Source: Candidatus Latescibacterota bacterium (GTDB lineage Bacteria; Latescibacterota; UBA2968; UBA8231). From it: a stretch of DNA of 64,000 bases. The stretch spans positions 4,256,001 to 4,320,000 of the forward strand of contig OZ241867.1 of NCBI GenBank assembly GCA_965203175.1, given 5' to 3'. The notes below the pieces were generated by a model that ran no database searches, was not told the DNA's origin, and saw only the letters and a program-made list of their open reading frames with translations. This document shows positions 17,772-64,000 of this stretch, one piece after another; position 1 is the first letter of the stretch, and each line of letters starts with the position of its first letter. The position numbers and the translations under genes are program-made.

Positions 17772-19719
<1,948 letters not shown>

Positions 19720-38064: not shown

Positions 38065-38076
38065 GCGCCTTTTCCC

Positions 38077-41072: not shown

Positions 41073-41101
41073 TTGACAGGCAGGCGGACAGTCCATAGAT
41101 T
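41073..41101 (+). promoter_or_regulatory. sigma70 promoter of the exported-protein cluster
   Basis: TTGACA-N17-TAGATT with an AT-rich UP-like element upstream. Confidence 0.7.
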
Positions 41102-41155
41102 GAGCACTTCGTCTCTCGCTCTATCAACCTTGAACCTTGCCAAAGGAGGTTTCCC

Positions 41156-42055
41156 TTGAAGAGACTGAGTCTTATTGCCTTGGTCGCGGTGATGGCTGCT
41201 TCGGCTGCTTTCGCGCACCAGGCTAACTATTTCATGCCGCAGATTCCCAACCCCGACAACATGGTCGTTGACGGCAACGACGACGACTGGGGCTGGATCG
41301 ATCCGGCTTTTGCCATCAACCCGGACACCATGTACGAAATTCTCGGTAGTGAGTGGCCCCCGGCCAAAGACGACTGGGACTGCATTCTCTACGTGGCTTG
41401 GAGTTCGTCCCCCGACAATTCGCTCTACTACTTTGCTCGGGTTACCGATGACTCGCTGGGCCTCTTCGTCGAGAACCCCCAGGAGTATTGGAAGGACGAT
41501 TCGCTGGAAATCATCGTCGATGCCGACCACTCGAGCGAGAACTTCAACGAGACCGAGATGACCTCCGGCCAGCAGTACGGTATCCGCGTTCTGCCCGCCG
41601 CCGGTCAGAAGGACACTTGGATCTTCAACGTGCCGCAGGAGAGCATCCTGTGGTCCACCGAGCGTCCTTATTTCGTCTATGAGTGGACCCTCGATCCGCC
41701 GGACGCTCGTCCGATGGAACAGCCCGCTGGTAGCTCAGTGACCTATACCTACGAGGTCAAGCAGGCTGTGTGGACCTTCCACGACAAGACGGGTCCCGAT
41801 GGCAGCGCTCGCCACAACTTTGCCTCCGACCAGATCATCGGTCTGACCTTCCAGTTTGACGAGACCGAGAATCCCGAGGTGGGCCGCGAGAAGCAGCCGG
41901 GCACGACGCCGGTTAACGGCGCGTTCCAGGACAACTCGAACGGCTCGGACTTCATCACAGTGGAGACCGAAGGCGCTACGGGCGGCACGGGCGTTACCGA
42001 CACGTCTGTTGAGGCCGATAGCTGGGGTCGGATCAAAGGCTATATGATCCAATAA
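41156..42055 (+). CDS. secreted CBM9/DOMON-like protein with C-terminal 'VEADSWGRIK' motif
   Basis: Signal peptide (AFA|H), 'VDGNDDDW', 'LYYFARVTDD', 'WKDDSLEIIVD', 'IIGLTFQFDE'; Gly/Thr linker then TSVEADSWGRIKG; RBS AAAGGAGGT. Confidence 0.75.
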   Translation: MKRLSLIALVAVMAASAAFAHQANYFMPQIPNPDNMVVDGNDDDWGWIDPAFAINPDTMYEILGSEWPPAKDDWDCILYVAWSSSPDNSLYYFARVTDDSLGLFVENPQEYWKDDSLEIIVDADHSSENFNETEMTSGQQYGIRVLPAAGQKDTWIFNVPQESILWSTERPYFVYEWTLDPPDARPMEQPAGSSVTYTYEVKQAVWTFHDKTGPDGSARHNFASDQIIGLTFQFDETENPEVGREKQPGTTPVNGAFQDNSNGSDFITVETEGATGGTGVTDTSVEADSWGRIKGYMIQ

Positions 42056-42177
42056 AGCACACCCCTAGCATTTTTCGCTAGGTAGCACATTGGACGTAGG
42101 TAGGTAAAGAGAGGTGGAGGTTGACTTCATCTCTCTTTATCTATCGCCTCTGCACCGTTTTCAGGAAGGCATTTTCA

Positions 42178-42924
42178 ATGAGGATACGGAACATCGCAAC
42201 GAGCGGGCTCTTGTCGGCCCTTTATCTGTTCGTGCTCGCCGGTTGTATCTCGCAGGTGGGGCTGCGGCGCTTTGCAACGTTCCCCGAGCCGGTTCCGCAA
42301 CAGGACGAGGCCATGACTGTCCTCGACGACGGCGCGATCGTCTATGCCAAGGATCGCTTGGAGATCTCGCTACAGGTGTTGGATGACGGATTCCTCAATC
42401 GCCAGTTCGCGGCGGATTCAAGGAAGGGCGCTGAATCGACCAATCCATACACGTATGGCAATTGGAAGCCTTGGGGCCAAGACTGGACTCCAGAGCGCTT
42501 TACCGTGGTCTTGCTGAAGGTCAAAAACTACGAGTATCCCAAGGTTTTCATCGACCCCAAGGCGCTCGTGATCACTACGTCGAACAACCGAGTGTACAAC
42601 GCGCTCGACAGCGGACAGCTTGAAGATCTCTTCAGCCCGTATCTGCGGGCTTATGCTGGCAACCAGCGGCGGCAGTTTGAGGCTACCACCGACCTGCTCA
42701 AACGCACTGTCTATCCGCCTGACATAATCTTTTCCGGTCAAGAGGAAGTCGGGTATATCGTCTTTCCGGTTTTGCACCGAGACGTGGGCAACTTCACCGT
42801 CAACGTGCCGGACATGGCCGTGCGCTTCGACTACAAGGGCGAACCGGTGGAGACCATTGATCTAGCATTCAAATTCCAACGCGAAATTTACCACGCACTT
42901 CATCCGCGCGCGGAGACGCCGTAA
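42178..42924 (+). CDS. hypothetical lipoprotein, beta-rich
   Basis: Lipobox LAGC; 'FTVVLLKVKN...GQEEVGYIVFP' Ig-like pattern; stop overlaps the next ATG. Confidence 0.75.
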   Translation: MRIRNIATSGLLSALYLFVLAGCISQVGLRRFATFPEPVPQQDEAMTVLDDGAIVYAKDRLEISLQVLDDGFLNRQFAADSRKGAESTNPYTYGNWKPWGQDWTPERFTVVLLKVKNYEYPKVFIDPKALVITTSNNRVYNALDSGQLEDLFSPYLRAYAGNQRRQFEATTDLLKRTVYPPDIIFSGQEEVGYIVFPVLHRDVGNFTVNVPDMAVRFDYKGEPVETIDLAFKFQREIYHALHPRAETP

Positions 42925-44885
42925 TGAATCGGGGGACAGCCCGCATTGCGGCGCTGTTGTTCGCCTTGTGTGCCTATGCGCAGTGGCTCAGCGCCGACGA
43001 ATGGGTGCTCGGGGGGCATGGGTTTTCTTGGGGCGATCTCGTCGAGGTCCGCGCCCAGATCGACGATCAAAGTAGCCCTGGCGCGATTCAGATCCGCGGC
43101 TTTACGCCCGACGAGAACATCATCACCACGCTCTCTTGGAAATACGGCAAGCCCAACGATTTGGTCAGCGAGGGCAATGCGGCGCTGTGGGACAATACAG
43201 CGGCCAGGAATTCCATTTCGCTGTCGATTGTCGATGGCGACGACACCACAAGTACGGCAGACCTCTTTAAAACCGCTGGCGTCGATCAAGACGGGCGCAC
43301 GTTCTTTTTGGATATAGGCTCGCGCGTGCCGGCCGACAGCTTGGTCTTTTTTCCTCGGCAAGAGGGGACGTACGCCAACGGCAAGCCTTTTAGAGACGAC
43401 TTTGTCCGCAAGCACCGGATTTCCGTCAGCGATGGGCTGACGTACGTGAACGAGCAGCCACTCTTCACCTTACTGCGCGACGTCCCGGTGAACCCCAACA
43501 GTGTGTTCACTATGAAATTTCCCCAGCAGTTCATTCGCTTTATTCAGTTGCGCGTGGGGTCGCGGAGTCCCTTTGAAATTGCCGAATTTGAACTCTACGG
43601 TAACGGCTTCGTGCCGCGGGCCACGTACCGGAGCCAAGTTATCGACTTAGGCGAGGTCTCCAACTACGGCACCATATCTTGGGCCCAGCGGGCACTGGAA
43701 CTGGTGGACGGCGAGTTGATCGAGTTGTCGGATCTGGGGCAGACCTCGGTCGCGGTGCGCATGAAGACGGGACAGGACGACAGCCCGCTGGTTCACTTCC
43801 AAAAGGTTGTTGACGACGAAACGCGAGCCGTCAGCCAAGTAGTGGTCTCGGAAGCGGATTACAACAAGCTGCCCTCGGGCGAGAAGGGCGATATCGAGGA
43901 CGACGCTGACAACTGGAGTCCCTGGTCGTTGCCGCTCGAATCCGGGCAATTGATCCCACTGCCCAGCCCGCGCCCCTATTTTCAGCTACAGATTATCATG
44001 GAGAGCCAATCCGTGACGCAGACGGTGCGCATCGACTCATTGCGGATTGAGCATTCGCTACCCCCGGCTGCTGCAGTCGTCGGCGAGATCTCCTTGGCCG
44101 ACGAGCCCAACCCACCAGCCGACATCGGCGTAATCGACAAAGACGATGCCGTTGTGCTGCCGAGCATCGACGGGGGTGAAGAGGTGCTCTTCGCCTATGA
44201 TGTGCGAGCCATAATAAACAACAACCAGAACGGCTTTGATGCTTTGCGCATCGATACGCCGACGCCAGCGCGCTTTGTCGGCTTGCAGATGGGCGATCCG
44301 CTCGAGCCTGTGGAGCCAGATCGCGTGAGCGCGGGCGACAGAAGCATTGAAGTGATTTTCACTAGCAACAAGGTCACCTTTGACAACAATGTGCCACTAC
44401 GCGTGCTCTTTGAGGGATCGACCGTGGTATTCGGTACGATTTTCACTGGCACGGTCTGGGATACCCAGTCCGATATTCTCGGCCAGCCCGTGCTCGAAGG
44501 CGATGCCAATTTCGACGTCAGCACCAACTCGCTGCGCGTGGCCTTGACCCAGCAGTCCGTGGGCGAAATCGTCCGCGCTATAGAGTTTAATCCTTCGGTC
44601 TTCACGCCGAATGGAGATGGCATCAACGACCACATCGCCATCAAGTACACCGTAATTCAGATTTCCGAGCCCAAGCCCATCGAGGTGGCCATTTACGACT
44701 TAGCGGGTCGGCTGGTGCGCGTGCTGGCCGATCGCGATCAGCCCGGCGGAATTTACACCGAGATGTGGGACGGACGGAGCGATGTCGACGAGGCCGTGCC
44801 TCCAGGTAGTTACGTGGTTTCGCTCTCAGTTGATAGCGGGATCGGCAACTTCAGGCGAGTCGGCGTCGTCGGCGTGGCCTATTGA
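42924..44885 (+). CDS. large exported protein with C-terminal TPNGDGxND/FlgD-Ig domain (paralog 1)
   Basis: Signal peptide; 'FTPNGDGINDH', 'IYDLAGRLVR', 'WDGR...VPPGSY'; ends GVAY. Confidence 0.85.
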   Translation: MNRGTARIAALLFALCAYAQWLSADEWVLGGHGFSWGDLVEVRAQIDDQSSPGAIQIRGFTPDENIITTLSWKYGKPNDLVSEGNAALWDNTAARNSISLSIVDGDDTTSTADLFKTAGVDQDGRTFFLDIGSRVPADSLVFFPRQEGTYANGKPFRDDFVRKHRISVSDGLTYVNEQPLFTLLRDVPVNPNSVFTMKFPQQFIRFIQLRVGSRSPFEIAEFELYGNGFVPRATYRSQVIDLGEVSNYGTISWAQRALELVDGELIELSDLGQTSVAVRMKTGQDDSPLVHFQKVVDDETRAVSQVVVSEADYNKLPSGEKGDIEDDADNWSPWSLPLESGQLIPLPSPRPYFQLQIIMESQSVTQTVRIDSLRIEHSLPPAAAVVGEISLADEPNPPADIGVIDKDDAVVLPSIDGGEEVLFAYDVRAIINNNQNGFDALRIDTPTPARFVGLQMGDPLEPVEPDRVSAGDRSIEVIFTSNKVTFDNNVPLRVLFEGSTVVFGTIFTGTVWDTQSDILGQPVLEGDANFDVSTNSLRVALTQQSVGEIVRAIEFNPSVFTPNGDGINDHIAIKYTVIQISEPKPIEVAIYDLAGRLVRVLADRDQPGGIYTEMWDGRSDVDEAVPPGSYVVSLSVDSGIGNFRRVGVVGVAY

Positions 44886-44944
44886 TGGTTGATTGTGGTG
44901 CTGATGGTACTGACTGGCAAAAATTCAAAAGGGAGGATTCCAGC

Positions 44945-47575: not shown

Positions 47576-47601
47576 GGGCCGCACTATTTCTCTGTGGATC
47601 C

Positions 47602-47641
47602 AAAGCGCCCGGCGTTCTCTAGCGGAGATGCCGGGCGCTTT
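47602..47641 (+). terminator. intrinsic terminator
   Basis: AAAGCGCCCGGCG...TGCCGGGCGCTTT stem. Confidence 0.8.
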
Positions 47642-47653
47642 ACTGCCTAACAA

Positions 47654-48898
47654 ATGGACATGCGCCTTGCTGTGATGTGGATAGGGCTAGTCGGCCTTCT
47701 CGGAGGGATCGGCTGTGGTGCTCCGGAACGCCACGTCCTCAAAAAGCCTGCCACGCCCCAGTCCCTTGCATTCTACCAACGCGCCTACGGGCAAAATCCG
47801 GCAGACCCGGAAGTGCTCTTGGCCTTGGGGTGGCTCTACCTGCAAAAGGACCGCACGCGCCGCGCCGTTGATGTGCTGTCCGAACTGGTCGCGATCGCGC
47901 CCGACGACGCGGATGCTCACTACTACCTCGGGGTTGCCCTCGCCAAAGAGCACCGCAAGAGCGAGGCCATAGCTACCTTTAAGCACGCACTCGAAAAAGC
48001 GCCGGGCTTTGCCGAAGCGTACTGGGCCTTGGCGCTGCTATACAACGAGCGCGGCGACGGGTACGAAAAGGCGCTTGCAACGGTCGAAGAGGGGCTGCAG
48101 TTGGCCGGACAGAGCGGCTATGGGCACTTTGTGTTGGGATTTGTGCTGTGTTCGCGCGGCGACAATGAAAATGCCAAGACCGCGCTGCTGAAGGCGATTG
48201 AACTCGACCCTGACTTGGCACACGCCCACTACTACTTGGCGCTGGTGTACTTGCGCTTGCAGGACGATCCGCGGGCCATGGCGGCCATGGAGCAGACCAT
48301 TGCCGCAGACCCGGGTTACACCTCGGCCTATTACAGCTTGGGCACGCTCTATGCGCGCACGGGCCGCGACGCCGAGGGCGCGCGAATGATCGAACTTTTT
48401 CAGCAGTTGAGTAGCGCGACAATGGACGAGGACCACTACCGCCGCTTGCTCTATCGCCAGGCCGTGCCGCTGGCGACCGACAAGCAGGCTGCCACGCATT
48501 TCAACTTGGGGTTGGTCTATTTGCGCAGAAAGGAGTTGGCGGCGGCACTCGAACAGTTCGAGGCGGCCTTGGCCCTCGATTCCACGTATGCGGAGGCCAG
48601 CCACAACATTGGGGTGATCTATTCGCTGCAAGAGCAACACGCGGCTGCTCGGCCCTTTTTGCTGCGCGCGGTCCGCCACAAGCCCGACTACGCGTTGGCC
48701 TTTGAAAACATAGGCAACAACAGCTTGGCCCTCGGCGAGTACGCAGAGGCGGTCGCTGCGTTTCGCCGCGCCTTGTCCCTCGACGGGAGCATGGCCTCAG
48801 CCCTCGACGGCTTGGGGACTGCGCTAATCCAGCAGGGCCAAGTGGCAGAAGGCCGCGCGGCTCGTGCCGAGGCCGCAGCCTTGAGGGCGCAACAGTAA
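47654..48898 (+). CDS. TPR-repeat lipoprotein
   Basis: Lipobox-like GIGC; repeated 'AHYYLG..L', 'A..NLG..Y'. Confidence 0.9.
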   Translation: MDMRLAVMWIGLVGLLGGIGCGAPERHVLKKPATPQSLAFYQRAYGQNPADPEVLLALGWLYLQKDRTRRAVDVLSELVAIAPDDADAHYYLGVALAKEHRKSEAIATFKHALEKAPGFAEAYWALALLYNERGDGYEKALATVEEGLQLAGQSGYGHFVLGFVLCSRGDNENAKTALLKAIELDPDLAHAHYYLALVYLRLQDDPRAMAAMEQTIAADPGYTSAYYSLGTLYARTGRDAEGARMIELFQQLSSATMDEDHYRRLLYRQAVPLATDKQAATHFNLGLVYLRRKELAAALEQFEAALALDSTYAEASHNIGVIYSLQEQHAAARPFLLRAVRHKPDYALAFENIGNNSLALGEYAEAVAAFRRALSLDGSMASALDGLGTALIQQGQVAEGRAARAEAAALRAQQ

Positions 48899-50590
48899 AT
48901 GTGGGTTGTACTAGTTGTTATTGGGGCATTAGTAGGATGCGGGGGTGAGGCAGCGCGACCCCTTTTCGTCGATGTAGCCGCCGAAGCGGGAGTCCAATTG
49001 CGCACCGTATCTGGAACGCCGCAAAAAGAGCACATCGTCGAATGCAATACGGGCGGGACGGCCCTTTTAGACCACGACCTAGATGGGGACGTGGATATTT
49101 TCATTGTCAATGGCACGCGCCTCTCCGGCTATGCCCCAGGCCGAGAACCCCGCGCTGAGCTGTACCGCAACGACGGCGCTTGGCGATTTACAGGTGTTGG
49201 CCGAGAGGCTGGCGTCGCGCACGTGGGATGGGGTATGGGGGTCACGGCGGCTGACTACAATGCCGATGGATGGCCCGATCTGTACTTGGCGAACTACGGT
49301 CCCAATGCCCTGTACGAAAACGAGGGCGACGGCACGTTCGTCGATGTGGCGGCCGAGCGGGGCGTGGACTTTAGCGGCTGGAGCTCGTCTGCGGCCTTTG
49401 GCGACTACGACCTCGACGGCGACTTGGACTTTTACTTGGCTAATTACATCGACTTTGACCCGGCGTTTCGCCCGATTGATCCGAGCTATTGCACCTGGCG
49501 CGGGATAGACGTATTCTGCGGCCCGCGCGGGATGCCGGGCGAGCGGGATCAATTCTATCGCAACGACGGCCCGAGTGCGGGTTGGACTTTTACCGACGCC
49601 ACTGAGGCTTTTGGCATTGCCGACTACGAGTACTATGGTTTTGCCGCGCTGGCCGGCGACTGGGATGAGGACGGCGACTTGGACATTTACATTGCCAACG
49701 ATTCGACACCGAATGTGCTCTACCGCAACGACCAAGGTGCATTTGCGGATGTATCGCTCCTGTCGGCGACTGCGTACAGCGAGGACGGCCGCGAACAGGG
49801 CGGCATGGGTTTAGCGGGAGGCGACTACGATCAAGACGGCGATTTTGATCTCTTTGTCACCAATTTCTCGCACGACAATAACTCGCTCTACGACAACAAT
49901 GGCCGGGGGTTTTTCACCGACGCCAGTTTCAGTTCAGCCCTAGGCCGTGCGAGCATCAGTTCTTTAGGGTGGGGCACGGGTTTTTTCGATTACGACAACG
50001 ACGGCGACGACGACCTGTTCGTCGCCAACGGGCACGTGTACCCAGCCGTTGACCGCCGCGACTTGGGGACTCGCTACGCCCAGCGCAACCACCTGTTTGA
50101 GAATCGCGACGGCGCTTTTGTCGAAGTCGGTGCAGCCTCAGGTCCGGGCCTAGCAGTGGAAAAGTCCAGTCGCGGCTCGGCCTTCGGCGATTTGGACAAC
50201 GACGGCGACTTGGACCTTGTGGTGGTCAATATCGACGACACGCCGACCTTGCTGCGCAACGACGGGGGCAATCGCCACAACTATCTGATGGTGAGGCTGC
50301 TCGGCGATGGAGGAAATACAGAGGCCATTGGTGCGCGAGTCTCGGTGTCGGTGGGTGGTGCGGTGCAGATGCGGGAGGTGCGCGCGGGCACGAGCTATCT
50401 GTCACAGGACGACCTACGGCTGCACTTCGGCTTGGGGGCGGCGACCGAGGCCGATCACCTCGTGGTGCGCTGGCCCGATGGAGTGGAAGAGCGCATCGAC
50501 GGGGTGGCGGGCAATCGGCTGATTACCATCCGGCACGGCGCGGGTCTCGTCGCCGAGGGGTTTGGGCCAGTGCCGAGGCCGGGGCCGTGA
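48899..50590 (+). CDS. CRTAC1-family FG-GAP repeat protein with ASPIC/UnbV domain
   Basis: Multiple DYDxDGDLD repeats; 'AIGARV', 'SYLSQDD..LHFGLG', 'VRWPDG'; lipobox LVGC. Confidence 0.92.
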   Translation: MWVVLVVIGALVGCGGEAARPLFVDVAAEAGVQLRTVSGTPQKEHIVECNTGGTALLDHDLDGDVDIFIVNGTRLSGYAPGREPRAELYRNDGAWRFTGVGREAGVAHVGWGMGVTAADYNADGWPDLYLANYGPNALYENEGDGTFVDVAAERGVDFSGWSSSAAFGDYDLDGDLDFYLANYIDFDPAFRPIDPSYCTWRGIDVFCGPRGMPGERDQFYRNDGPSAGWTFTDATEAFGIADYEYYGFAALAGDWDEDGDLDIYIANDSTPNVLYRNDQGAFADVSLLSATAYSEDGREQGGMGLAGGDYDQDGDFDLFVTNFSHDNNSLYDNNGRGFFTDASFSSALGRASISSLGWGTGFFDYDNDGDDDLFVANGHVYPAVDRRDLGTRYAQRNHLFENRDGAFVEVGAASGPGLAVEKSSRGSAFGDLDNDGDLDLVVVNIDDTPTLLRNDGGNRHNYLMVRLLGDGGNTEAIGARVSVSVGGAVQMREVRAGTSYLSQDDLRLHFGLGAATEADHLVVRWPDGVEERIDGVAGNRLITIRHGAGLVAEGFGPVPRPGP

Positions 50591-55362: not shown

Positions 55363-55399
55363 ATTTTTTATACTATATAGTCTAGCGGGAGAAGAAGTT

Positions 55400-57451
55400 A
55401 TGAAACGTCTAGCGAATTTGTGGCTTTGGTTTCTCGTCGCAGCATCGGCTACGGCCGCGGCGGCGGACATTTCTTTGTGGCAGATCGGAGGGAGTGGCCT
55501 TCGGTGGGCCGATAGCGACTCGGCTCAAGTGATGATCGACTTTGCCAGCCCGAATAACTCAATCCAGCCGGTGCTGGTCAGCGCGGATACGACGGTCTTT
55601 CCCCTGCTCGAAAACTGGTCGCCAAAAAAGAATCCAGACGAGCTGGGTTTTGTCGATGGCGAGCGGCCCCGCGCTTGGAAGGGCCAGGCCGGCACCTCTT
55701 CGACGGTTGACAACGCGCTCAACCTCATCGACGGCAGCGGCAAGACGTACAATCCGGTGACTAGCAACAGCATTAACAGCGAGTACTACACCATTGATTT
55801 GGGGGTGCCGGTGCCGTTGTTCCGCTTTGCCATGAGCACGCCGGACAAGGGGTTTTTCCGCTCGGATGGAACCCCGCTAGAGGAAGACGCCATCCCGGCC
55901 TTTGAAGTGTCGATCGCCCCAGACACCAACAACGACGTGCTGCACACGCCCAACGGGCCCCCTATCGGGGAAATCATCGCCGAGGCGCGCGAGAATGTCG
56001 TCCCCAAGATTGTGGCTGATTTTCCCCTGCAATACGTGCGCTATGTCCGCTACAAGCGCAAGAATTCGATCCTCGACGAGGCGACGAATCAGTCGTCTGG
56101 GCATTCGGGCACGGCGCGCAAGGGGACGGTGGCCGAGTTCTTTCTCTGGGGAGAGGGAATCCCCAAGCGGGCCACGTACAAGACGTTCATTTTTGACCTC
56201 GGCACGGTCGTCAACTTCGGTCGGCTGTTCTGGAAGGCCACGCCCATGCGCCTAGTCGACGGCGTGGCCGAGGAAGCTCCGGATGCCAACGTGCAAATCG
56301 AGGTCGAAGCGCGCACTGGGATCGACGCAGATCCAGACATCTACTACGAATTCACGGATATGGGGACGCGCGTCGTCGTCGAGCAAAAACGCTATCAGGG
56401 CGTGCTGAAAAACCAGAGCGCGGCCGTTACGAATGCCGATGGGTTGGGCGGAACCCTGACTCTTTCCACGCGGCCCAAGCCGGGGCTCCGCGCTGGCATT
56501 GAGTACGACCAACAAAACTGGACGTTTTGGTCTTTTCCGACGACCGAGTCCGACCGACCCCTCAATCTCAATCGGGGATCCCATCTGCAAATTAAGGTGG
56601 TGCTGCACAGCGAGCGGTTCGACGAATTCGTGCGCCTCGATTCCCTGTGGATTGAGACCTCGCCGATCTTGGCCAGTCGCGTCGTGGCCGAGGTGGCCGA
56701 GCTTGGCCAGCCCAACCCGGCGCGCGGTGTGGCCGAGGTCCCCTTGGGCGAGATGACGGACTTCACCTACGACATCAAGGCGGAATTCGCGGCTGGTGAG
56801 GTGGGTTTTGACGCCCTGCGGATTAGCACCGGCAGCACCCAGACCGAGTTCAAAGGGCTGGAAGTGGATGGAATTGCAACCGATCCAGCCGGGGTAGAGG
56901 TTGTGGACGACGGCTTTGTGGTGCAGTTGCCGCAGCGCATAAACAGTGCCTACAATCCGAATTTACGGGTGACCTTTGCCGCCGAAGTCTTCGACTTTGC
57001 GCGCACCTTTGAAGGCGAGGTCTTTAACTCCGGTGGTACCGAGCTGCCACAGCCTGTCGAAAGTGGGGACGTCAGCGATGCGATCGGCACCAATAGCCTG
57101 CGGGTTTTGGCTGCAAGCGCGACCAATCCGCAGTTAGTGCAGGATGTGCGGTTTTCCAGCGGCGTGGTCACTCCTAACGGCGACGGAGTCAATGACGAGT
57201 TGGTCATTTCCTACTCGCTCTTCGCCCTGCCACAATCGGTGCCGGTGCAGTTGCAAGTGTTTTCGCTGGACGGTCGCCGAGTGGCTCAAGTCCAGCGCGG
57301 TCAGCAGGGGTCCGGTCCCCAGCAATTGCACTGGGATGGCCGCGACCAACGCGGTGAGACGCTCGCCCCGGGCCTTTATCTTTTGGGGATCGGCATTGAG
57401 GCCGAAGACAAGAGCGCCCTACAACTGCGGCCCATTAACATCGCTTATTGA
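55400..57451 (+). CDS. large exported protein with TPNGDGxND/FlgD-Ig C-domain (paralog 2)
   Basis: Signal peptide; 'VTPNGDGVNDE', 'WDGRD..G..LAPGLY'; ends NIAY; same subfamily as 42924. Confidence 0.85.
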   Translation: MKRLANLWLWFLVAASATAAAADISLWQIGGSGLRWADSDSAQVMIDFASPNNSIQPVLVSADTTVFPLLENWSPKKNPDELGFVDGERPRAWKGQAGTSSTVDNALNLIDGSGKTYNPVTSNSINSEYYTIDLGVPVPLFRFAMSTPDKGFFRSDGTPLEEDAIPAFEVSIAPDTNNDVLHTPNGPPIGEIIAEARENVVPKIVADFPLQYVRYVRYKRKNSILDEATNQSSGHSGTARKGTVAEFFLWGEGIPKRATYKTFIFDLGTVVNFGRLFWKATPMRLVDGVAEEAPDANVQIEVEARTGIDADPDIYYEFTDMGTRVVVEQKRYQGVLKNQSAAVTNADGLGGTLTLSTRPKPGLRAGIEYDQQNWTFWSFPTTESDRPLNLNRGSHLQIKVVLHSERFDEFVRLDSLWIETSPILASRVVAEVAELGQPNPARGVAEVPLGEMTDFTYDIKAEFAAGEVGFDALRISTGSTQTEFKGLEVDGIATDPAGVEVVDDGFVVQLPQRINSAYNPNLRVTFAAEVFDFARTFEGEVFNSGGTELPQPVESGDVSDAIGTNSLRVLAASATNPQLVQDVRFSSGVVTPNGDGVNDELVISYSLFALPQSVPVQLQVFSLDGRRVAQVQRGQQGSGPQQLHWDGRDQRGETLAPGLYLLGIGIEAEDKSALQLRPINIAY

Positions 57452-57462
57452 GGGAAGCACTC

Positions 57463-59919
57463 ATGTTCAATCGAGCCACCGCCTTAGTGCTGCTGCTCAC
57501 CTGCCACGCCCGCGCCGAGTTTCTCACCTTCGACAGCCAAGAGACCTGGGAGGCCAACTGGTCGCTTAAGCCGCAGTTAAACGTCTTCACCCCAGAGGGG
57601 CACTTGGGGCTGATCAAGTTCCGCAAGGACATCAATGCCACGCTCGACGCCCATCTCTTCGTCCACCCGACCAATGAGCGCGGGGATGTGCCCGGCGGCA
57701 TCTGGTCTGCGCTGAGTAACCCCAACACCGCTCCCCGGATCATAGACGGGGATGCAGCCACCTTTTGGAAGCCAGCCGGCGGCGACCCGCTCGACAAGTG
57801 GATCGTGCAAATCGACTTGGGTCGCGCGGTACTGGCCAAAGAGATCCGCCTCCACTTCCCCGATGAAGAGGGGGCCAAGCCCTTTCGTCAGTTCAGCGTT
57901 TTCGCTTCTACAGGTGCCCACGTGGCGGCCTTAGAGGACGTATATCGCTTCGCGCCAATCTATCGCACGACCAAGCCCAACTTGGATACGTATGTCAGCT
58001 TTGGGTTCAAGCCGGCTGTGGAGGATACCACCCGCGCTGTAGAACAACTGAGCGGTGCCGGAGGCAGCGCGGATTTTACCGCTCCGGAGTTTACCGGTGA
58101 TGCCAATACCGCCACCACGGGAGGTCGCAACAAGGTAGTGGCTACCGGCCAAGCGGATTCGCGGGTAGCCGCTAACTCTAGGTGGCAAATGATCCAGTTC
58201 ATCCGCTTCCTCGTCGATGAGCACCAGCTCGATGGCGCGCTTGCCGAAATCGAAGTCATTACCGTTGGCGACAACATCAGCCTTGGGGTCGAGGAAAAGG
58301 GCGGCACGTACATCAATGGATCGCGGGCGACCGACCCCTTCTTTTGGCTCGACGGAGATCTTAATACGTACGGGGTCATCGAGGTGCATCAGCAGTTTAC
58401 TGAGTCGCGCGGCACGGCCTATGAAGGGGGCTTGTGGTGGCAGGTGGATCTGGGGGCGACCTACTGGGTGGACGACGCGTTCGTCTATTGGCAAAAAGCT
58501 GGCGAGCGTCTGGCCGACTTCCGCTTGGGTACCAATAACGCCGGCACAGGGTACACTTTCTTCTCTTCCGACGGCACCAAGACCCTGACCGGTGAAATTG
58601 ACTTTGATACGTGGATTTTTGAACCGGAATGGGCCAACGAGCGCGAGAAATACAAGCGGCACTATCGCTATTTGTTCAATCCGCGCAAGGTGCGGCATAT
58701 CTTCTGGCTGGCCCTACACGACTTGGGTTGGCGCGCCCATCCCATGGAGCTACAGATGTTCTCCCCAGGCCACCCGGCCGAAGTCGTGATCCAATCCAAT
58801 TTTTTGGATCTGAGCGCGCTTGCTGGCGACGGACAGCCCAAGGTGATCAAGGCCCTCCACTACGACGCTGATCTGCCGCCCAATACTCAGATTGAACTGC
58901 GTTCCCGCTCGGGCAACGAGATGGGCGAGGTGTACACTTTTCACAACAAGATCGGCGAGGTCGTCACTGAGGAGAAGTGGAACAGCTCGCCCAAGGTACT
59001 GCGGGGCCGAGTGGATACCTCGGTCGTCGTTGGGGAGACTTGGAGCGAGTGGAGCAACGTGTACAAGCTGTCGGGCGAGCCTTTTAAGTCGGATTCGCCG
59101 CGCAAATTCGTGCAGCTAGAGTTGGTTATGAGCACGGAAGACCCGGAGGTGGCTCCCACAGTGCGCTCGGTCGAACTGGAGTTTGTCGATGCGCTGGTCA
59201 ACGAGGCGCGCGGATCGATTCTACCGCGCCAAGCCAAGCCCAACGAGGCTACCCGTTTCACTTATATGCTGTGGCCGTCCGTGACCCCGGAGAACACGGG
59301 CTTTGATCGCCTGCGCTTGGTCGTGCCCGACCTAGTGCAGGCCGAGGAAGTCGAGGTAATGATCGCCGGTCAGGTGGTCGTGCCAACCGCTATGGATATT
59401 GCCGCTGATTCGCTGCTGATCAACTTGCCGCAGGTAGTCCAAGGCGACTCCGTGCAGGTCGCTTTCACCACTCGGCTGGTGCGGAATGCCGCGGTTGTAG
59501 AAGCCGATCTGGGCCTGAGCGATGCGCCGGGCCTGTGGCAAGATGTCGAGCCGGCCGAGCGCCGATCTAACGTGGTACTTCTACCTGAACTGGCCGACAG
59601 CGACCGCTTGATTGGCGACTTGCAGCTTTCGAGCCGGGTACTCACGCCCAATGGCGATGGGGTCAACGACGCTGTGGAGTTGAGCTTTGTCGTCTTCAAG
59701 GCCCAAGATGCGGTGCCCATAGTCGAGGTGAGCGACTTGGTAGGCCGGCCCGTGGCCCAATTGACGCCGGTCTCAGAGGGACCGACTCGCCGCTTTGAGT
59801 GGAATGGCCAAAACGCAGCCGGCGCGATTGTGCCCCCGGGCATCTATCTCTGGCGCATAGACGTAAACGCAGACTCAGGCGATGCCATTGAGCTGCGCGT
59901 CGTCGAGGTGGCGTACTGA
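57463..59919 (+). CDS. large exported protein with discoidin-like modules and TPNGDGxND/FlgD-Ig C-domain (paralog 3)
   Basis: 'IIDGDAATFW...WIVQIDLG', 'LTPNGDGVNDA', 'VPPGIY'; ends EVAY. Confidence 0.85.
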   Translation: MFNRATALVLLLTCHARAEFLTFDSQETWEANWSLKPQLNVFTPEGHLGLIKFRKDINATLDAHLFVHPTNERGDVPGGIWSALSNPNTAPRIIDGDAATFWKPAGGDPLDKWIVQIDLGRAVLAKEIRLHFPDEEGAKPFRQFSVFASTGAHVAALEDVYRFAPIYRTTKPNLDTYVSFGFKPAVEDTTRAVEQLSGAGGSADFTAPEFTGDANTATTGGRNKVVATGQADSRVAANSRWQMIQFIRFLVDEHQLDGALAEIEVITVGDNISLGVEEKGGTYINGSRATDPFFWLDGDLNTYGVIEVHQQFTESRGTAYEGGLWWQVDLGATYWVDDAFVYWQKAGERLADFRLGTNNAGTGYTFFSSDGTKTLTGEIDFDTWIFEPEWANEREKYKRHYRYLFNPRKVRHIFWLALHDLGWRAHPMELQMFSPGHPAEVVIQSNFLDLSALAGDGQPKVIKALHYDADLPPNTQIELRSRSGNEMGEVYTFHNKIGEVVTEEKWNSSPKVLRGRVDTSVVVGETWSEWSNVYKLSGEPFKSDSPRKFVQLELVMSTEDPEVAPTVRSVELEFVDALVNEARGSILPRQAKPNEATRFTYMLWPSVTPENTGFDRLRLVVPDLVQAEEVEVMIAGQVVVPTAMDIAADSLLINLPQVVQGDSVQVAFTTRLVRNAAVVEADLGLSDAPGLWQDVEPAERRSNVVLLPELADSDRLIGDLQLSSRVLTPNGDGVNDAVELSFVVFKAQDAVPIVEVSDLVGRPVAQLTPVSEGPTRRFEWNGQNAAGAIVPPGIYLWRIDVNADSGDAIELRVVEVAY

Positions 59920-59949
59920 ACTTACAACGACCCGCAGGAGCTTGAAGCC

Positions 59950-60612
59950 ATGTCGAACCTCGTGAGCATTTCCGCGCTAGCGGTACTCATCGCGCTCACG
60001 GCCTGCGCCCAAGGATCGGGCGCGAGGGCCAAACGCCAGTTGAACTTATCCGAGCGAGTGTTATCGGAGGCCCCGCCCAGCGTTACCGAGGGACAGATCG
60101 GGCCTTTGCTGATCCGGGGCCGCTCGGCCTATCAGAACAAAATCGAAAGGGCAATAGTGCGCGCCCAAACGCCGCCGCTGGAAGATCACGGTCTATTCGC
60201 CTTTTTCGGCACTGTTAATAAAAGCTACCTCCGCTCGCAGGTGACAGACCTCCATCTGGCGATCATCCCCCGTCTCATCAGGGAATTGCAAAGCAAAGGC
60301 GACGCCTTTAGGAGCAAAAATGTATCGCCTGAGTTCGCGGTTTCATTTGTGGTAACAGACCTCCATTTCTGGCAACAAATAACCCCGTCCCAAGTAATCA
60401 CTAGGAACCATCGGGCGGGCCACGGCCACATGCACTTGGAGCTAGAAATAAGGCACTTGGCAACCAACAAGGTGGAAGCGACGCATGTTCTGATCGGGCA
60501 AGTGGAAAAACCCGAGTCAGCCGGCGTGTACACTGTGGATGATCTACTCGATGAGGTCGCACAGCAGACGGGTGAGACTGTCGTAGAATTCATGAGGTCG
60601 TTGGAACTGTAA
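59950..60612 (+). CDS. hypothetical lipoprotein
   Basis: Lipobox LTAC; AGGAG RBS; alpha/beta pattern ending in an amphipathic helix. Confidence 0.65.
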   Translation: MSNLVSISALAVLIALTACAQGSGARAKRQLNLSERVLSEAPPSVTEGQIGPLLIRGRSAYQNKIERAIVRAQTPPLEDHGLFAFFGTVNKSYLRSQVTDLHLAIIPRLIRELQSKGDAFRSKNVSPEFAVSFVVTDLHFWQQITPSQVITRNHRAGHGHMHLELEIRHLATNKVEATHVLIGQVEKPESAGVYTVDDLLDEVAQQTGETVVEFMRSLEL

Positions 60613-60669
60613 AACCTTCTGGTGATGAGAAGTTTTACTTCAATATCAACGAGGCTTGCAGTAGCATGC

Positions 60670-63018
60670 ATGATCGAGAGACGCGGGATTTACTGCGTGC
60701 TCACGGCCCTGTTCATCTGCGGTGTTAGCCATGCCGAAGAAATCCGCTTCGACTCCCCGGCCGAGTGGGCGACTTGGGAGGTTCCGGTTGATATCGTCCA
60801 GTTTGCAGACGACGGCTCGCTAGAGCTGAGAAAATTCCGCAAGGAAATCAACGCCACTCTTGATGCTCATCTTTTCACCCAACCCACTCAGACCCGTGGC
60901 AAGGTCCAGGGGGGGATCTGGCAGGTCGGATCCAATCCGACGGCGGCCCGACGCATCATGGACGGCAATCTGGAGACGGTGTGGCGACCTAGTCAAGCCG
61001 ACGACTTGGTCGATTGGGTGGTGACCATCGACTTGGGGCGGCCCGTGCTAGCCGAGCGCATCCGCTTGGTGTTTCCCGACCGCGCAGGAGCGCGTCCTTG
61101 GCGGCAATTTAGCGTTTTCACGGCCAATGGTGCGCGCATCCAATCCACGGATGACGTCTTCAAATTCGACCAAGCCTTTCAGACGACTCAGCCCAACCAA
61201 GAGCAGGTCGTCGATATCGAACTGGTCGGCGAGCGCGACGTAACGCGGGTCATTGACGAAAACCTCGGGCTGGATCCAGCCGCGCTAAATACCTTCCGCA
61301 TGGTGCGCTTTGTGCGCGTGCGCGCCGACGAAAAAAGTGCGGATGCAGCTTTGGCCGAAGTGGAGGTGGTCGCCGCAGGCGACAACATAAGTCTCGGAGT
61401 CTTGGCGCGCGGCGGCAGCTTCGACAATGGACTTTTGGCGCGCGAGCCGCAGAATATGTTCGACGGCATCACCGACACGTACGGCAATATATTCACTGTT
61501 AAGACTAAGGGCGGCTGGCGCGAGAGTGGGGTGTGGTGGTCGGTTGATTTAGGGGCGCTGTTCTGGCTCGACGAGGCATTCATCTACTGGCAGGATCGCG
61601 GCGAGGGCCTGTCGAGCTTCCTATTCGAGGGATTGCAGGCTGGTTCTGGATACCAAATCCTCTTTTCCGATGGGCGGCGCACCATTGCCGGCGACATCGA
61701 CTACACGCCGCTGATCTTCGAGCCAAGGCCAGTCGGCGCGGAGTGGAACTTGCGCCACCATCGCTACGCGTTTGCTCCGCGCAAGATCCGCTACTTGTTC
61801 TGGCATTCGCTGACCGATACGGGCTGGTTTTCCCACCCCATGGAGTTGATGCTGTTCTCGCCGGGCTATCCCGCGCAGGTGGTATTGCTCTCGGACTTTA
61901 TCGACCTCGGCCAACTCGCTGGCGATGGCCGCGCCAAGGCCATCAAGCGCTTGCTCTGGGAGGCGACAACGCCGGATCAGACGCGGTTACAGGTGCGCTC
62001 GCGGTCGGGCAATACCCTGCAAGAGTTCTACACGTTCTACGATAAAAAGGGTGAGGAAGTCACCGAGACGCGCTACGGGAGCCTGCCCAAAGTCATCCGC
62101 GGCCCCATTGACACCACGGTCGTCGTAGGAGCCGATTGGGGCGCGTGGAGCAACTTCTACCAGTTTTCCGGCGAGGCGTTTAAGTCGGAGACGCCACGCC
62201 GCTTTATCCAATTGGAGTTGATTCTCTCTACGGAGGATCCCGCTGTCGCACCGGTGCTACACGCGCTGGCACTGGATTTTGAGGATGCGCTGGTCTCGCA
62301 GGCGGCTGGACAGGTTGCTCCGCGCTATGTCGTACCCAACGAGGCGACGCGGTTTACGTATGCGCTGCGGACGAGCGCAACGGAGGGCGATTCAGGGTTT
62401 GACCGGATGCGCTTTTCTACGCCTAGCGCTGTGGATGCAGCAGATGTGCGGCTGTGGATTGGTGGTGCGGCGCACGAGCCGAGTGCCGTGCGGGTAGTGG
62501 GGGATTCGCTGCTGTTTGTCGATTTGCCGGAGACGGTGCGGACGGATTCTGTCACCGTGGAATTCACCACTAAGGTCCTGCGCAACGCCACGGTTTTTGC
62601 CGCGGACTTAGGGCAAGAAGCACGTCCTGATCTGTGGCAGTCGGTGGAAGCGGCTGAGCGGCAATCGAACTTGGTGTTTCTGCCGGATTTACCCGGCAGC
62701 GAGCGGTTGATCGGCGATTTGCAGGTTGTGCCGCCGGTGTTTTCGCCCAACGGCGATGGGATCAACGACCACGTGCAGATACACTTTGCGCTGTTTAAGG
62801 CGGTGGATGCGTCTCCGAGCGTGCGCATTTTCGATTTGGCGGGGAGGGAAGTGGCGGTTCTTACTTCGTCGGGTGCGGATGTGTTGCAGTCGTTTAGTTG
62901 GGATGGATTGGATGCGTCGGGTGAGTGGGTGGCACCGGGCGTTTACGTATGCCGCATTGCTGCGGGAGCCGATGCTGGGCAGGGAGAAGTAGTGCGCACC
63001 CTAGCTGTAGCCTATTGA
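60670..63018 (+). CDS. large exported protein with discoidin-like modules and TPNGDGxND/FlgD-Ig C-domain (paralog 4)
   Basis: Colinear with 57463 ('KFRK.INATLDAHLF', 'HPMEL..FSPG.PA'); 'FSPNGDGINDH'; ends AVAY. Confidence 0.85.
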   Translation: MIERRGIYCVLTALFICGVSHAEEIRFDSPAEWATWEVPVDIVQFADDGSLELRKFRKEINATLDAHLFTQPTQTRGKVQGGIWQVGSNPTAARRIMDGNLETVWRPSQADDLVDWVVTIDLGRPVLAERIRLVFPDRAGARPWRQFSVFTANGARIQSTDDVFKFDQAFQTTQPNQEQVVDIELVGERDVTRVIDENLGLDPAALNTFRMVRFVRVRADEKSADAALAEVEVVAAGDNISLGVLARGGSFDNGLLAREPQNMFDGITDTYGNIFTVKTKGGWRESGVWWSVDLGALFWLDEAFIYWQDRGEGLSSFLFEGLQAGSGYQILFSDGRRTIAGDIDYTPLIFEPRPVGAEWNLRHHRYAFAPRKIRYLFWHSLTDTGWFSHPMELMLFSPGYPAQVVLLSDFIDLGQLAGDGRAKAIKRLLWEATTPDQTRLQVRSRSGNTLQEFYTFYDKKGEEVTETRYGSLPKVIRGPIDTTVVVGADWGAWSNFYQFSGEAFKSETPRRFIQLELILSTEDPAVAPVLHALALDFEDALVSQAAGQVAPRYVVPNEATRFTYALRTSATEGDSGFDRMRFSTPSAVDAADVRLWIGGAAHEPSAVRVVGDSLLFVDLPETVRTDSVTVEFTTKVLRNATVFAADLGQEARPDLWQSVEAAERQSNLVFLPDLPGSERLIGDLQVVPPVFSPNGDGINDHVQIHFALFKAVDASPSVRIFDLAGREVAVLTSSGADVLQSFSWDGLDASGEWVAPGVYVCRIAAGADAGQGEVVRTLAVAY

Positions 63019-63034
63019 GGTGGATTAGAGCGGT

Positions 63035-64000
63035 ATGAGGTGGAGAAAATACAGGGTTTGCCATTTGCTCTTGGGCCTGTTCATCTGTGGTGCGAGCCGA
63101 GCGGAGGAAGTTCGTTTCGACACTCCGGAGGCGTGGGAGGCTTGGGATATCCCGGTAGATATCGTCCAGTTTGCGGACGACGGTTCGCTGAAGTTGAAGA
63201 AATTTCGCAAACAGATCAACGCTGTCCTCGACGCACCCCTCTTCACTCATCCCTCTCAGAAGCGCGGCGAGGTCCAGGGCGGGATATGGAGTGCCGGTAG
63301 CAACGAGGTGGACGCGCCCAAGCTCATAGATGGCGATCCAGCGACCTATTGGCAGCCCGATGTAGCAGACCAGCTCGTCGATTGGTCGGTCGGTATCGAC
63401 TTGGGAAGGCCGGTACTGGCGCGGGAGATCAAGCTGATATTCCCCGACGAAGAGGGCGCTCGGCCCTTGCGGCAGTTTAGCGTCTTTGTCACTCAGGGTG
63501 CCCGGATTCAGTTCCGGGACGACGTGTTCCGCTATCGCAAGATCTTCCAGACGACCAAGCCCAATACCGAGACTACCATTGCGATTCCGCTGCTAGGCAG
63601 TGCGCTGGATACCACGCGGGTGCTTGATGAGGACAGAGACGTTGACTTGAATGCCGAGCAGGACTTCCAGATGGTGCGGCTAATCCGCGTCGTCGCCGAT
63701 GAGCAAAGCAGCGATGCAGCCCTAGCCGAAATTGAAGTCCTCGCCCAGGGGGACAACGTCAGCTTGGGGACTTTGGAACGAGGTGGGCGCTTTGAACACG
63801 GCTTGCTGGCGCGCGAGCCGCAGAACATGTTCGACGGCAATATGGACACCTTCGGCAATATTCTCACCTCGGGGGGGACCAAGGGCGGCTGGCGCGAGGG
63901 CGGGCTATGGTGGCAGGTGGATTTGGGTGCACTGTTCTGGATCGACGAGATGTTTATATATTTTAAAACTCGGGGTGAGGGCATGTCGAGTTTCTTGTTC
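63035..64000 (+). CDS. paralog 5 of the exported family (runs off window end; not in ORF track)
   Basis: MRWRKYRVCHLLLGLFICGASRAEEVRFDTPEAWEAWDIPVDIVQFADDGSLKLKKFRKQINA..., close to 60670; reads open to 64000. Confidence 0.85.
   Translation, partial: MRWRKYRVCHLLLGLFICGASRAEEVRFDTPEAWEAWDIPVDIVQFADDGSLKLKKFRKQINAVLDAPLFTHPSQKRGEVQGGIWSAGSNEVDAPKLIDGDPATYWQPDVADQLVDWSVGIDLGRPVLAREIKLIFPDEEGARPLRQFSVFVTQGARIQFRDDVFRYRKIFQTTKPNTETTIAIPLLGSALDTTRVLDEDRDVDLNAEQDFQMVRLIRVVADEQSSDAALAEIEVLAQGDNVSLGTLERGGRFEHGLLAREPQNMFDGNMDTFGNILTSGGTKGGWREGGLWWQVDLGALFWIDEMFIYFKTRGEGMSSFLF

Follow-up and report, generated by a model that had tools for sequence, protein, structure and literature searches.

A heavily amplified outer-membrane cassette centred on an undescribed beta-barrel family in Latescibacterota, with a candidate role in substrate capture and import

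What kind of system is encoded by the row of genes for exported proteins that fills the final 23 kb of a 64,000-nucleotide stretch of DNA from Candidatus Latescibacterota bacterium (contig OZ241867.1, positions 4,256,001 to 4,320,000; hereafter, the window)? The source genome, that of an uncultured sponge-associated bacterium, is a single contig of 6.58 Mb; coordinates with the prefix G000 refer to this genome and all others, unless indicated, to the window. The original prediction, derived from the letters of the stretch, held that the row encodes one lineage-specific machine, either a secretion and surface-assembly system directed by C-terminal domains (CTDs) or a glycan capture complex unrelated to Sus that feeds the adjacent sugar transporter. 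Here we show that the gene row represents a single copy of a modular outer-membrane cassette that is heavily amplified in the genome and centred on an undescribed barrel family. The reading that we prefer, and to which we give an even chance on the strength of domain content and gene neighbourhood, is that the cassette would be a substrate-specific capture-and-import unit, similar to a polysaccharide utilization locus (PUL) and built without Sus parts.

The row consists of 14 open reading frames (ORFs) that occupy positions 41156-64000 of the plus strand and have ends that overlap or nearly abut (Table 1). All 14 products begin with a signal peptide or a lipobox, as judged by eye and without a signal-peptide predictor, so that the earlier description of 14 co-oriented genes, each for an exported protein, stands. 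Signal peptides were assigned in this way to g1, g3, g4 (from M25), g10 (from an internal Met), g11, g13 and g14, and lipobox cysteines to g2, g5, g6, g8, g9, g12 and probably g7, whereas VAY or IAY C-termini are found in g3, g10, g11 and g13. Below, the barrel (g4) is denoted B, the CBM9-like protein (g1) C, the first lipoprotein (g2) L, the two proteins with CTDs of the type recognized by the type IX secretion system (T9SS) X (g3) and Y (g10), the discoidin proteins (g11, g13 and g14) Z, and the lipoprotein with peptidyl-prolyl isomerase (PPIase) domains (g9) P.

A tblastn search of the genome with the 14 proteins yields 59 barrel paralogs at a coverage of at least 70%. After greedy assignment of genes to families, there are 62 B, 69 X, 27 Y, 68 Z, 60 FG-GAP/ASPIC, 36 PPIase and 18 L genes (the latter being the paralogs of g2), together with about 45 genes for C or C-like proteins. 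The barrel genes belong to 41 clusters that add up to 868 kb, or ~13% of the genome. With 62 barrels in 41 clusters, the scale is typical of substrate-specific uptake loci and not of a single machine, and the notion of one lineage-specific machine had to be abandoned.

The composition of these clusters was assessed by comparing the genes located within 10 kb of each barrel with those located near random 2.7-kb segments. An X, Y or Z gene is found near 60 of the 62 barrels (28% for random segments), a C or C-like gene near 45 (13%), a PPIase gene near 39 (13%), a DUF6785 or ATP-binding cassette (ABC) transporter gene near 33 (21%) and an L gene near 19. The barrel gene nearly always has one to three X, Y or Z genes at its side, whose products belong to a single superfamily; a C gene is part of most units, and L, P, TPR and FG-GAP/ASPIC lipoproteins are encoded in many. 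Genes of the sulfatase, FGE, MR_MLE, SDR and PhyH families are not enriched (25 of 62 barrels, compared with 44% of the random segments). A tandem arrangement with a further barrel is found for 25 of the barrels. There are two recurrent layouts, 'P B B X Z X C-like' and the one seen in this window, 'C L X (Y) Z B'. The clusters contain no more than 70 unassigned ORFs of at least 150 amino acids; among the 40 largest are a PL4 lyase, GH5, GDSL esterases, family-5 binding proteins and a Sugar-bind regulator, as well as five PMT_2/TMTC-like TPR proteins and many unrelated items. In the window itself, g12 (59950-60612) has practically no paralog, although every neighbouring gene has dozens in the genome.

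The PMT_2/TMTC-like proteins are predicted membrane proteins with TPR domains encoded inside barrel clusters (loci L143, L147, L149, L151 and L152), and YfhO and TMEM260-like genes are located at window positions 26769-30973. Taken together, these genes suggest that protein O-mannosylation of envelope proteins might be linked to the barrel loci.

The cassette is conserved in other genomes. The 80 best loci, taken from contigs that represent one genome per species, come from records titled as Latescibacterota, Gemmatimonadetes/Gemmatimonadota/Gemmatimonadaceae or Handelsmanbacteria metagenome-assembled genomes (MAGs); some of the isolate names read like those of sponge-derived bins, and, according to record titles, the cassette also occurs in MAGs from lakes, groundwater and sediment. 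Down to 74% barrel identity, orthologous loci preserve the order (aa or d)-C-L-X-B-T-F-F-T-P-Y, in line with the predicted co-conservation of the four core genes (g1-g4), and further cassette types are each preserved in several MAGs. Among 121 sampled genomes of the phylum, a first-look search with a barrel profile produced matches in 72, including 40 of 40 genomes of the family to which the window belongs, and in 0 of 29, 0 of 13 and 0 of 2 genomes of three sister families of the same class (f2-f4); relatives contain up to 83 first-look barrel candidates per genome. The passenger part of g3 was detected in 53 of the 121 genomes, all of them barrel-positive, with a single-sequence query that may miss distant families, and both X and the C-terminal tail of C described below are missing from all 49 genomes without a barrel match. 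SprA, by comparison, is encoded in 116 of the 121 genomes. Because these include all 44 genomes of families f2-f4, where the barrel was not found, the barrel is not a core part of the T9SS, and the idea that it constitutes a CTD-directed secretion system is weakened.

The sequence and the model of g4 identify it as a probable large outer-membrane barrel of an unnamed family. The AlphaFold2 model, for which a 40-row alignment of the family (A1) served as input, is a beta-barrel with a mean predicted local distance difference test score (pLDDT) of 75.4 and a predicted template modelling score (pTM) of 0.73, in agreement with the putative barrel originally placed at 44945. The wall is formed by about two dozen long strands (a number read from the DSSP string, not from coordinates), with a beta-rich insertion at residues ~240-390, an Asp/Asn-rich region at ~495-600 that contains many invariant acidic residues, and an N-terminal stretch (~17-103) that combines low model confidence with high conservation. 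The Foldseek neighbours of the model are MtrB (6r2q_B, E 7.8e-9, TM 0.29/0.37) and the FimD usher (3rfz_B, E 4.2e-6, TM ~0.2), and the best whole-barrel match in the full VIA scan is SlpA (7zgx_A, Z 13.6, 417 residues aligned); porins and TonB-dependent receptors follow with partial alignments, and all of these are generic barrel matches. Searches of Pfam (to E<=10), NCBIfam and solved structures assign g4 to no family, and Pfam likewise gives no match, even at E<=10, for g2 and g12. In a sequence-cluster atlas, g4 falls among unnamed clusters only, and the nearest named one, DUF6029 (0.88), is no more than a lead. The family accounts for 615 matches among 8000 scored candidates, the best 120 of which are all unnamed or 'hypothetical', and for 1193 clusters at 50% identity (E<=0.001) in a library of 1.84 billion proteins.

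Several known classes of barrels were considered for g4 and rejected. A SusC-like TonB-dependent transporter is contradicted by the lack of Plug (PF07715) and PF00593 matches on g4 at E<=10 and of a recognisable TonB box; the 30 Plug matches in the genome are all at coordinates other than those of the barrel paralogs. For PorP/SprF, the only TIGR03519 match in the genome (21.3 bits) is on a PorV-like gene and none is at the barrel paralogs. Comparison of A1 with a DUF5916 protein of the same genome by hhalign gives a probability of 0.3%, and the PF19313 matches are at other loci. Finally, no usher family is found on g4 and no chaperone or pilin family among the 14 genes, and the match to FimD is a generic barrel match only. 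The original statement that the 23 kb contain no SusC/SusD or core secretion-system component proved accurate, the T9SS being encoded elsewhere in the genome, and in searches of Pfam and NCBIfam and for Plug, SusD and DUF5916 the proteins of the row map to no characterised system, the sorting tails excepted.

The proposed capture complex had included surface lid proteins, but the lipoprotein encoded next to X is not a SusD-like lid. In the L family (alignment A2), the lipobox Cys is invariant and precedes a conserved segment. The AlphaFold2 model of g2 (pLDDT 90.1, pTM 0.83) is a beta-sandwich with a helical insert, and its nearest folds are YcdA (4r4g, Z 8.0), YjhA (3cfu, Z 7.6) and MPT63 (1lmi, Z 7.0), a range that the search tool rates as common. 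A SusD-like or LptE-like assignment of g2 was therefore rejected in favour of the predicted beta-sandwich; the sole SusD_RagB (PF07980) match in the genome, at genome position 3767002, is outside the cassettes. Complex prediction for B (residues 105-873) with L (24-248), as had been suggested for the lipoprotein at 42178, gave in three runs scores of 0.42, 0.49 and 0.09 (median 0.42) against 0.00 for the best control, with contact agreement of at least 65% and partner pLDDT of at least 78, an outcome classed by the tool as weak support. Of 157 solved complexes, 116 reach the mark, as do 2 of 215 mismatched pairs; passes scoring at most 0.60 comprise 18 of the 157 solved complexes and both passing mismatches, and the tool itself cautions that a pass of this kind is wrong more often than it is right if the pairing was not already likely. 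Three divergent L paralogs (L134-L136; G000:5636664-5637905, 6510190-6511317 and 6497074-6498261) have an extra C-terminal domain of ~130 amino acids, which in one of them scores 23.7 bits against Pfam TonB_C, just below the cut-off of 24.6.

The '[VI]AY'-tailed proteins, initially noted as an expanded family of exported proteins, do not form a new export class; they appear to carry T9SS-type CTDs and thus to be candidate cargo of the T9SS encoded elsewhere in the genome. The C-terminus of g3 matches CHU_C (34.4 bits) and FlgD_ig (28.6 bits, cut-off 27), the latter in accord with its earlier description as a FlgD-tailed protein; one or both models score above the 27-bit cut-off for g3, g10 and g13, and g11 remains below it (CHU_C, 23.6 bits). 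The NCBIfam models of type A and type B CTDs give scores below their cut-offs (24.1 against 35 for TIGR04131 and 17.9 against 23 for TIGR04183), so that the tails are best viewed as relatives of the known sorting domains that are specific to this lineage. The g3 and g10 proteins are full-length paralogs (27% identity), and g11, g13 and g14 have the C-terminal half in common with them and add discoidin domains (F5_F8_type_C_2, 49 bits in g11); the full-length g14 gene, which extends beyond the window, encodes a protein 77% identical to g13. PDB sequences retrieved with g3 are limited to FlgD Ig domains, which match its tail (E 0.001), and none was retrieved with g11. Genome-wide, 92 of 3943 open frames of at least 300 amino acids end in [VI]AY, and VAY (80) is the commonest tail. 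The check for T9SS core genes was positive: SprA (618 bits, with a neighbouring match in frame), PorU (632.5 bits) and, directly downstream of PorU, a PorV-like gene (147.5 bits, below the cut-off of 250) are present. GldM had no match in this genome or in the control genomes, which makes that search uninformative. Within one barrel cluster (L156; G000:5760086-5761696), a di-haem cytochrome c peroxidase (CCP_MauG) with a FlgD_ig-type T9SS tail is encoded.

A different C-terminal tail is found in the C family. The g1 protein matches CBM9_1 (PF06452) with 27.1 bits (cut-off 23.4) over only 47 of the 185 profile positions (41-87), a tail-bearing relative reaches 39.2 bits, and there are 30 paralogs of g1 at a coverage of at least 70%. 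The family alignment (A3) reveals a conserved end, T-A-V-E-x-x-[ST]-W-G-x-[IVL]-K, located 3-14 residues before the stop (window 41996-42040 in g1). In open frames of at least 150 amino acids, the pattern [ST]WG.[IVLM]K occurs 85 times, in 84 cases within 25 residues of the C-terminus. The 84 carriers include 32 C or C-like proteins, 2 FGE-type proteins and 50 others, and these 50 are encoded outside the cassettes; of 20 of these others that were scanned, 15 have a Pfam match at E<=0.001, and the families seen are nine PD40 propellers (several in tandem arrays), two Cache proteins and one each of HmuY, Temptin_C, polysaccharide deacetylase, LTXXQ, CBM9_1 and a weak zf-HC2. Tandem arrays of tail carriers are located at G000:1361496-1376238 and 4966213-4983994. 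Judging by these matches, the tail is carried by predicted exported proteins with unrelated passenger domains. At the DNA level, the pattern VExx[ST]WGxIK has 44 matches in this genome and its reversed control has 1; the tail pattern is present in 52 of the 121 sampled genomes, all barrel-positive, and the barrel-positive genomes without an exact match include 13 of family f10 and 1 of f14. PEP-CTERM, LPXTG and GlyGly-CTERM signals were rejected as equivalents, given that the motif is followed by 3-14 mostly polar residues and no hydrophobic helix and that g1 has no NCBIfam match; in the literature searched, an SWGRIK-type motif was not found as a sorting tail and turned up only in an unrelated virus paper. 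Most members of the C family in A3 also have a His directly after the predicted cleavage site (AxA|H; mature start of g1 at window 41216-41220), which some paralogs lack; a mature N-terminal His of this kind would be reminiscent of the copper 'histidine brace' proteins.

The divergent sugar ABC transporter noted upstream of the row is indeed present and is of the CUT1 type; the best NCBIfam similarities are to UgpA/E, MalF/G and GlcT/U, none of which reaches its equivalog cut-off. Where orthologous loci are compared, g1 has as its divergent neighbour an ABC operon in five genomes (L031-L035) and a DUF6785 gene in three (L037, L038 and L045), the latter in the orthologous loci of the more distant genomes. 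This swap of transporters in a fixed divergent position is the best single hint that the cassette might feed an inner-membrane carrier. The DUF6785/DUF6784 protein, with ~650-710 amino acids and many hydrophobic segments, has 56 copies in the genome, 24 of them within 10 kb of a barrel gene (for example, L111 at genome positions 3654596-3656737). No paper that mentions DUF6785 was found in the literature searched, and a PDB sequence search gave no meaningful match.

The core genes had been described as a unit from promoter to terminator. The promoter-like site is real as a pattern but at chance level (4 found, 3.1 expected), and the hairpin at ~47602-47641 is strong (dG -45.8, z -4.25) but has no T-run and does not appear in the terminator-scan list. 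Contigs from RNA libraries (four runs from four studies, labelled sponge metagenome or a coded organism) cover the core genes; their summed depth peaks over g1 (289, 97, 70 and 4393, a weak signal) and drops after 47670 in 4 of 4 runs, which is a weak hint, because contig depths of this kind do not allow genes to be ranked and the stretch itself was used to select the runs.

On balance, capture and import is the best explanation because of the copy number, the binding-type domains, the adjacency of transporters and the scarcity of Sus-type systems. Under this scheme, X, Y and Z would be taken to the cell surface by the single T9SS of the genome and placed at or on the barrel as ligand-binding parts, whereas C and L would associate with the barrel, the B-L contact being the one for which complex prediction gives a weak indication. 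P and the TPR proteins might assist the folding or assembly of the unit. The captured substrate would then traverse the barrel and cross the inner membrane through the CUT1-type ABC importer encoded next to the row or, where other copies are concerned, through the polytopic DUF6785/DUF6784 membrane protein acting as a carrier, and the many paralogs would correspond to many substrate specificities. Multi-copy loci that combine a barrel, binding proteins and an importer are PUL-like in the functional sense, and from this combination we infer uptake. Of the original alternatives, it is thus the non-Sus capture complex feeding a transporter that fares best, at even odds, without the single machine and with a lipoprotein that is not a SusD-like lid.

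Additional observations are compatible with this explanation. The discoidin domains of Z, which belong to a sugar-binding type, and the CBM9_1 domain of C are of binding type and would support capture. The genome has few alternative uptake systems, with 30 Plug receptors and one SusD-like match. Some clusters contain predicted glycan enzymes or sugar-related genes (the PL4 lyase, GH5, GDSL esterases and Sugar-bind regulator mentioned above), and the co-occurrence of X and the tail with the barrel across genomes suggests that the components may function as a unit.

A number of points weigh against capture and import. We infer transport and binding solely from domain types and neighbourhood, and the assignment of DUF6785 as an importer is a guess from hydrophobic segments. 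Energy coupling is not evident because there is neither a Plug domain nor a recognisable TonB box, and the scheme accounts neither for the gating of a barrel with about two dozen strands nor for the ~36 dedicated PPIase lipoproteins and ~60 FG-GAP/ASPIC proteins. Catabolic families are not enriched near the barrels, glycan enzymes are few among the 40 largest unassigned cluster ORFs, and L is found near less than a third of the barrels (19 of 62). The phyletic co-occurrence, moreover, rests on few real contrasts because related genomes are not independent.

The strongest rival, which we nevertheless consider unlikely, is that the barrel serves as an outer-membrane anchor of the neighbouring T9SS cargo, analogous to PorP/SprF, and that the cassettes produce a variable adhesin coat for attachment to sponges or particles and are not involved in import. 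Type B CTD cargo is anchored by PorP-like proteins. In the present genome this role is vacant, because the TIGR03519 search found no PorP/SprF homologue, and nearly every barrel has a CTD-protein gene close by (60 of 62), with tails for which CHU_C, a Pfam model related to type B, gives the highest scores. The paucity of enzymes in the clusters also fits an anchor, as does SlpA, an S-layer/outer-membrane protein, as the best whole-barrel structural match, although this match is of the generic kind. The barrel, however, is about three times as long as the PorP/SprF model and does not match it, and the cassette is not confined to host-associated MAGs, since by record title it is also present in those from lakes, groundwater and sediment. 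An adhesin coat leaves unexplained why inner-membrane transporter genes are enriched near barrels (33 of 62, against 21%) and replace one another in a fixed divergent position.

Less probable still, in our assessment, is a role of the barrel as receptor or translocon for the TAVExxSWGxIK-tailed proteins, in a pathway separate from the T9SS in which TPR lipoproteins would receive the tail and the PPIase would act as a chaperone. The position of the tail near the C-terminus in 84 of 85 matches, on unrelated passenger domains, speaks for this role; 45 of 62 barrels have a gene for C or a C-like protein nearby, so that one tailed protein is encoded in most cassettes, the cassettes also encode dedicated chaperone-like lipoproteins, and all 52 tail-positive genomes have the barrel, against none of the 49 without a barrel match. 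However, more than half of the tailed proteins (50 of 84) have their genes elsewhere than in the cassettes, the 13 genomes of f10 and the one of f14 have the barrel without an exact match to the pattern, and 62 translocon paralogs for one signal would be unusual. Anchoring or display and SWGxIK sorting could coexist with import. In a more far-reaching version, to which we assign a similarly low probability, the barrels would represent a new outer-membrane pathway in which two sorting routes converge on one barrel, as docking site or translocon for the TAVExxSWGxIK proteins and as anchor for the T9SS-delivered CTD proteins, forming dozens of surface 'utilisomes' independent of TonB-dependent receptors. 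That the cassettes have no common function and are a chance neighbourhood is very improbable: some adjacency is expected because all the exported-protein families involved are very abundant in the genome, and even random segments have X, Y or Z within 10 kb in 28% of cases, but this is contradicted by the far stronger linkage observed (97% vs 28% for X, Y or Z and 73% vs 13% for C), by the overlapping or abutting frames and by the gene order conserved across genomes and cassette types.

Literature searches on polysaccharide utilization, the outer membrane or type IX secretion in Latescibacterota found no description of the cassette, and those on ASPIC, FG-GAP, SusD and CRTAC1 returned only unrelated animal papers; the excerpts of PMC7081726 (PAUC34f) and PMC4454575 (Latescibacteria single amplified genomes) do not mention such a cassette. 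If capture and import is correct, a phylum common in sponges, sediments and waters would devote about one-eighth of the genome to a system annotated as 'hypothetical', which would amount to a second, independent solution to the task of SusC/SusD, which is to capture large substrates selectively at the outer membrane. The inference of carbon use by Latescibacterota and sponge symbionts from genomes would change accordingly, T9SS cargo would appear as parts of uptake complexes, and there would be a context for testing the undescribed SWGxIK tail. The barrel family, with ~1200 clusters at 50% identity in public data, has no Pfam entry.

The features of the locus are listed in Table 1. The two CRTAC1-like proteins, g6 and g7, were classified as such by their scores (155 and 161 bits for FG-GAP_3 and 78.5 and 68.6 bits for UnbV_ASPIC). 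The remainder of the window (1-36 kb) consists of housekeeping and mobile DNA unrelated to the gene row. At 9918-11165, a TnpB/Cas12f1-like (OrfB_IS605) gene adjoins a zinc ABC transporter and a gene for a TonB-dependent receptor (11712-14021). The segment 16001-18000 has a GC content of 0.42, against ~0.60 elsewhere, and may be foreign DNA; an ORF without family in this low-GC stretch (16549-17634) adjoins a GroEL-type gene (17772-19403).

Table 1. Features of the cassette and its divergent neighbour (window coordinates)
Feature	Position	Strand	Basis or remark
Divergent ABC importer, CUT1-like (sugar/oligosaccharide type)	36583..40940	-	Pfam SBP_bac_1 and BPD_transp_1
ABC binding protein	39231-40940	-	
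ABC permeases	38077-39234 and 36583-38064	-	
Promoter-like site, TTGACA-17-TAGATT	41073..41101	+	sigma-70-like scan
g1 (C), exported CBM9/DOMON-like protein	41156..42055	+	Pfam CBM9_1; end is TSVEADSWGRIK plus 5 residues
g2 (L), lipoprotein, lipobox LAGC	42178..42924 (ORF opens 42121)	+	predicted beta-sandwich with helical insert (AlphaFold2)
g3 (X), exported, T9SS-type CTD at residues ~557-653, ends VAY	42924..44885	+	Pfam CHU_C, FlgD_ig
g4 (B), predicted large outer-membrane beta-barrel, 897 amino acids	44954..47575 (ORF opens 44882)	+	likely start M25, signal peptide ...AFAQ
GC-rich hairpin after g4 stop, possible terminator or processing site	47602..47641	+	folding energy
g5, TPR lipoprotein	47654..48898	+	Pfam, lipobox by eye
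g6, FG-GAP plus UnbV_ASPIC (CRTAC1-like) lipoprotein	48899..50590	+	Pfam, lipobox by eye
g7, second FG-GAP plus UnbV_ASPIC protein	50587..52224	+	Pfam; 46% identity to g6
g8, TPR lipoprotein	52221..53609	+	Pfam, lipobox by eye
g9 (P), lipoprotein with two parvulin-type PPIase domains (SurA/PrsA-like)	53599..55362	+	Pfam
g10 (Y), g3 paralog, T9SS-type CTD, ends IAY	55283..57451	+	likely start at internal Met ~55397
g11 (Z), exported, two discoidin (F5/8 type C) domains, CTD-like VAY tail	57448..59919	+	Pfam
g12, small lipoprotein without family, essentially unique in genome	59950..60612	+	no Pfam match; lipobox
g13 (Z), discoidin plus CTD paralog	60622..63018	+	Pfam
g14 (Z), discoidin paralog, truncated by window end	63035..64000	+	Pfam

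The cassette shows none of the defining features of the Sus, PorP/SprF, DUF5916 or usher systems, yet it resembles each of several known systems in some respect. MtrB of MtrCAB, Deinococcus SlpA and FimD are the best structural neighbours of the barrel and, like it, are barrels encoded with partner proteins; the TM-scores (0.2-0.37) and partial alignments, however, are those of any beta-barrel, and the cassette has no cytochromes, pilins or usher domains. The DUF5916 proteins (PF06452 plus PF19313) similarly combine a CBM9-like module with a large barrel, which in the cassette are two separate genes, but there is no detectable homology between the barrels and the true DUF5916 genes are elsewhere in the genome. 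With type B cargo of the T9SS and PorP/SprF, the cassette shares CTD cargo genes that adjoin a barrel gene, tails that in g3, g10 and g13 pass CHU_C or FlgD_ig, and a genome with SprA, PorU and a PorV-like gene; in contrast, the barrel has ~870 amino acids as opposed to the 292 positions of TIGR03519 and does not match it, the tails are below the NCBIfam cut-offs, and the barrel was not found in the 44 relatives of families f2-f4 that have SprA. The differences from the PULs of Bacteroidota include a barrel without Plug, TonB-dependent receptor signature or SusC homology, a beta-sandwich lipoprotein in place of a SusD-like protein, binding proteins that are not lipoproteins but end in either a T9SS-type CTD or the SWGxIK tail, the addition of PPIase, TPR and FG-GAP/ASPIC lipoproteins, and no enrichment of catabolic enzymes. 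The likeness is in the overall design: as in the PULs, there are many paralogous loci in which a barrel is combined with exported or surface binding proteins that have carbohydrate-binding-type domains, with importers adjacent and with glycan enzymes in some of the copies.

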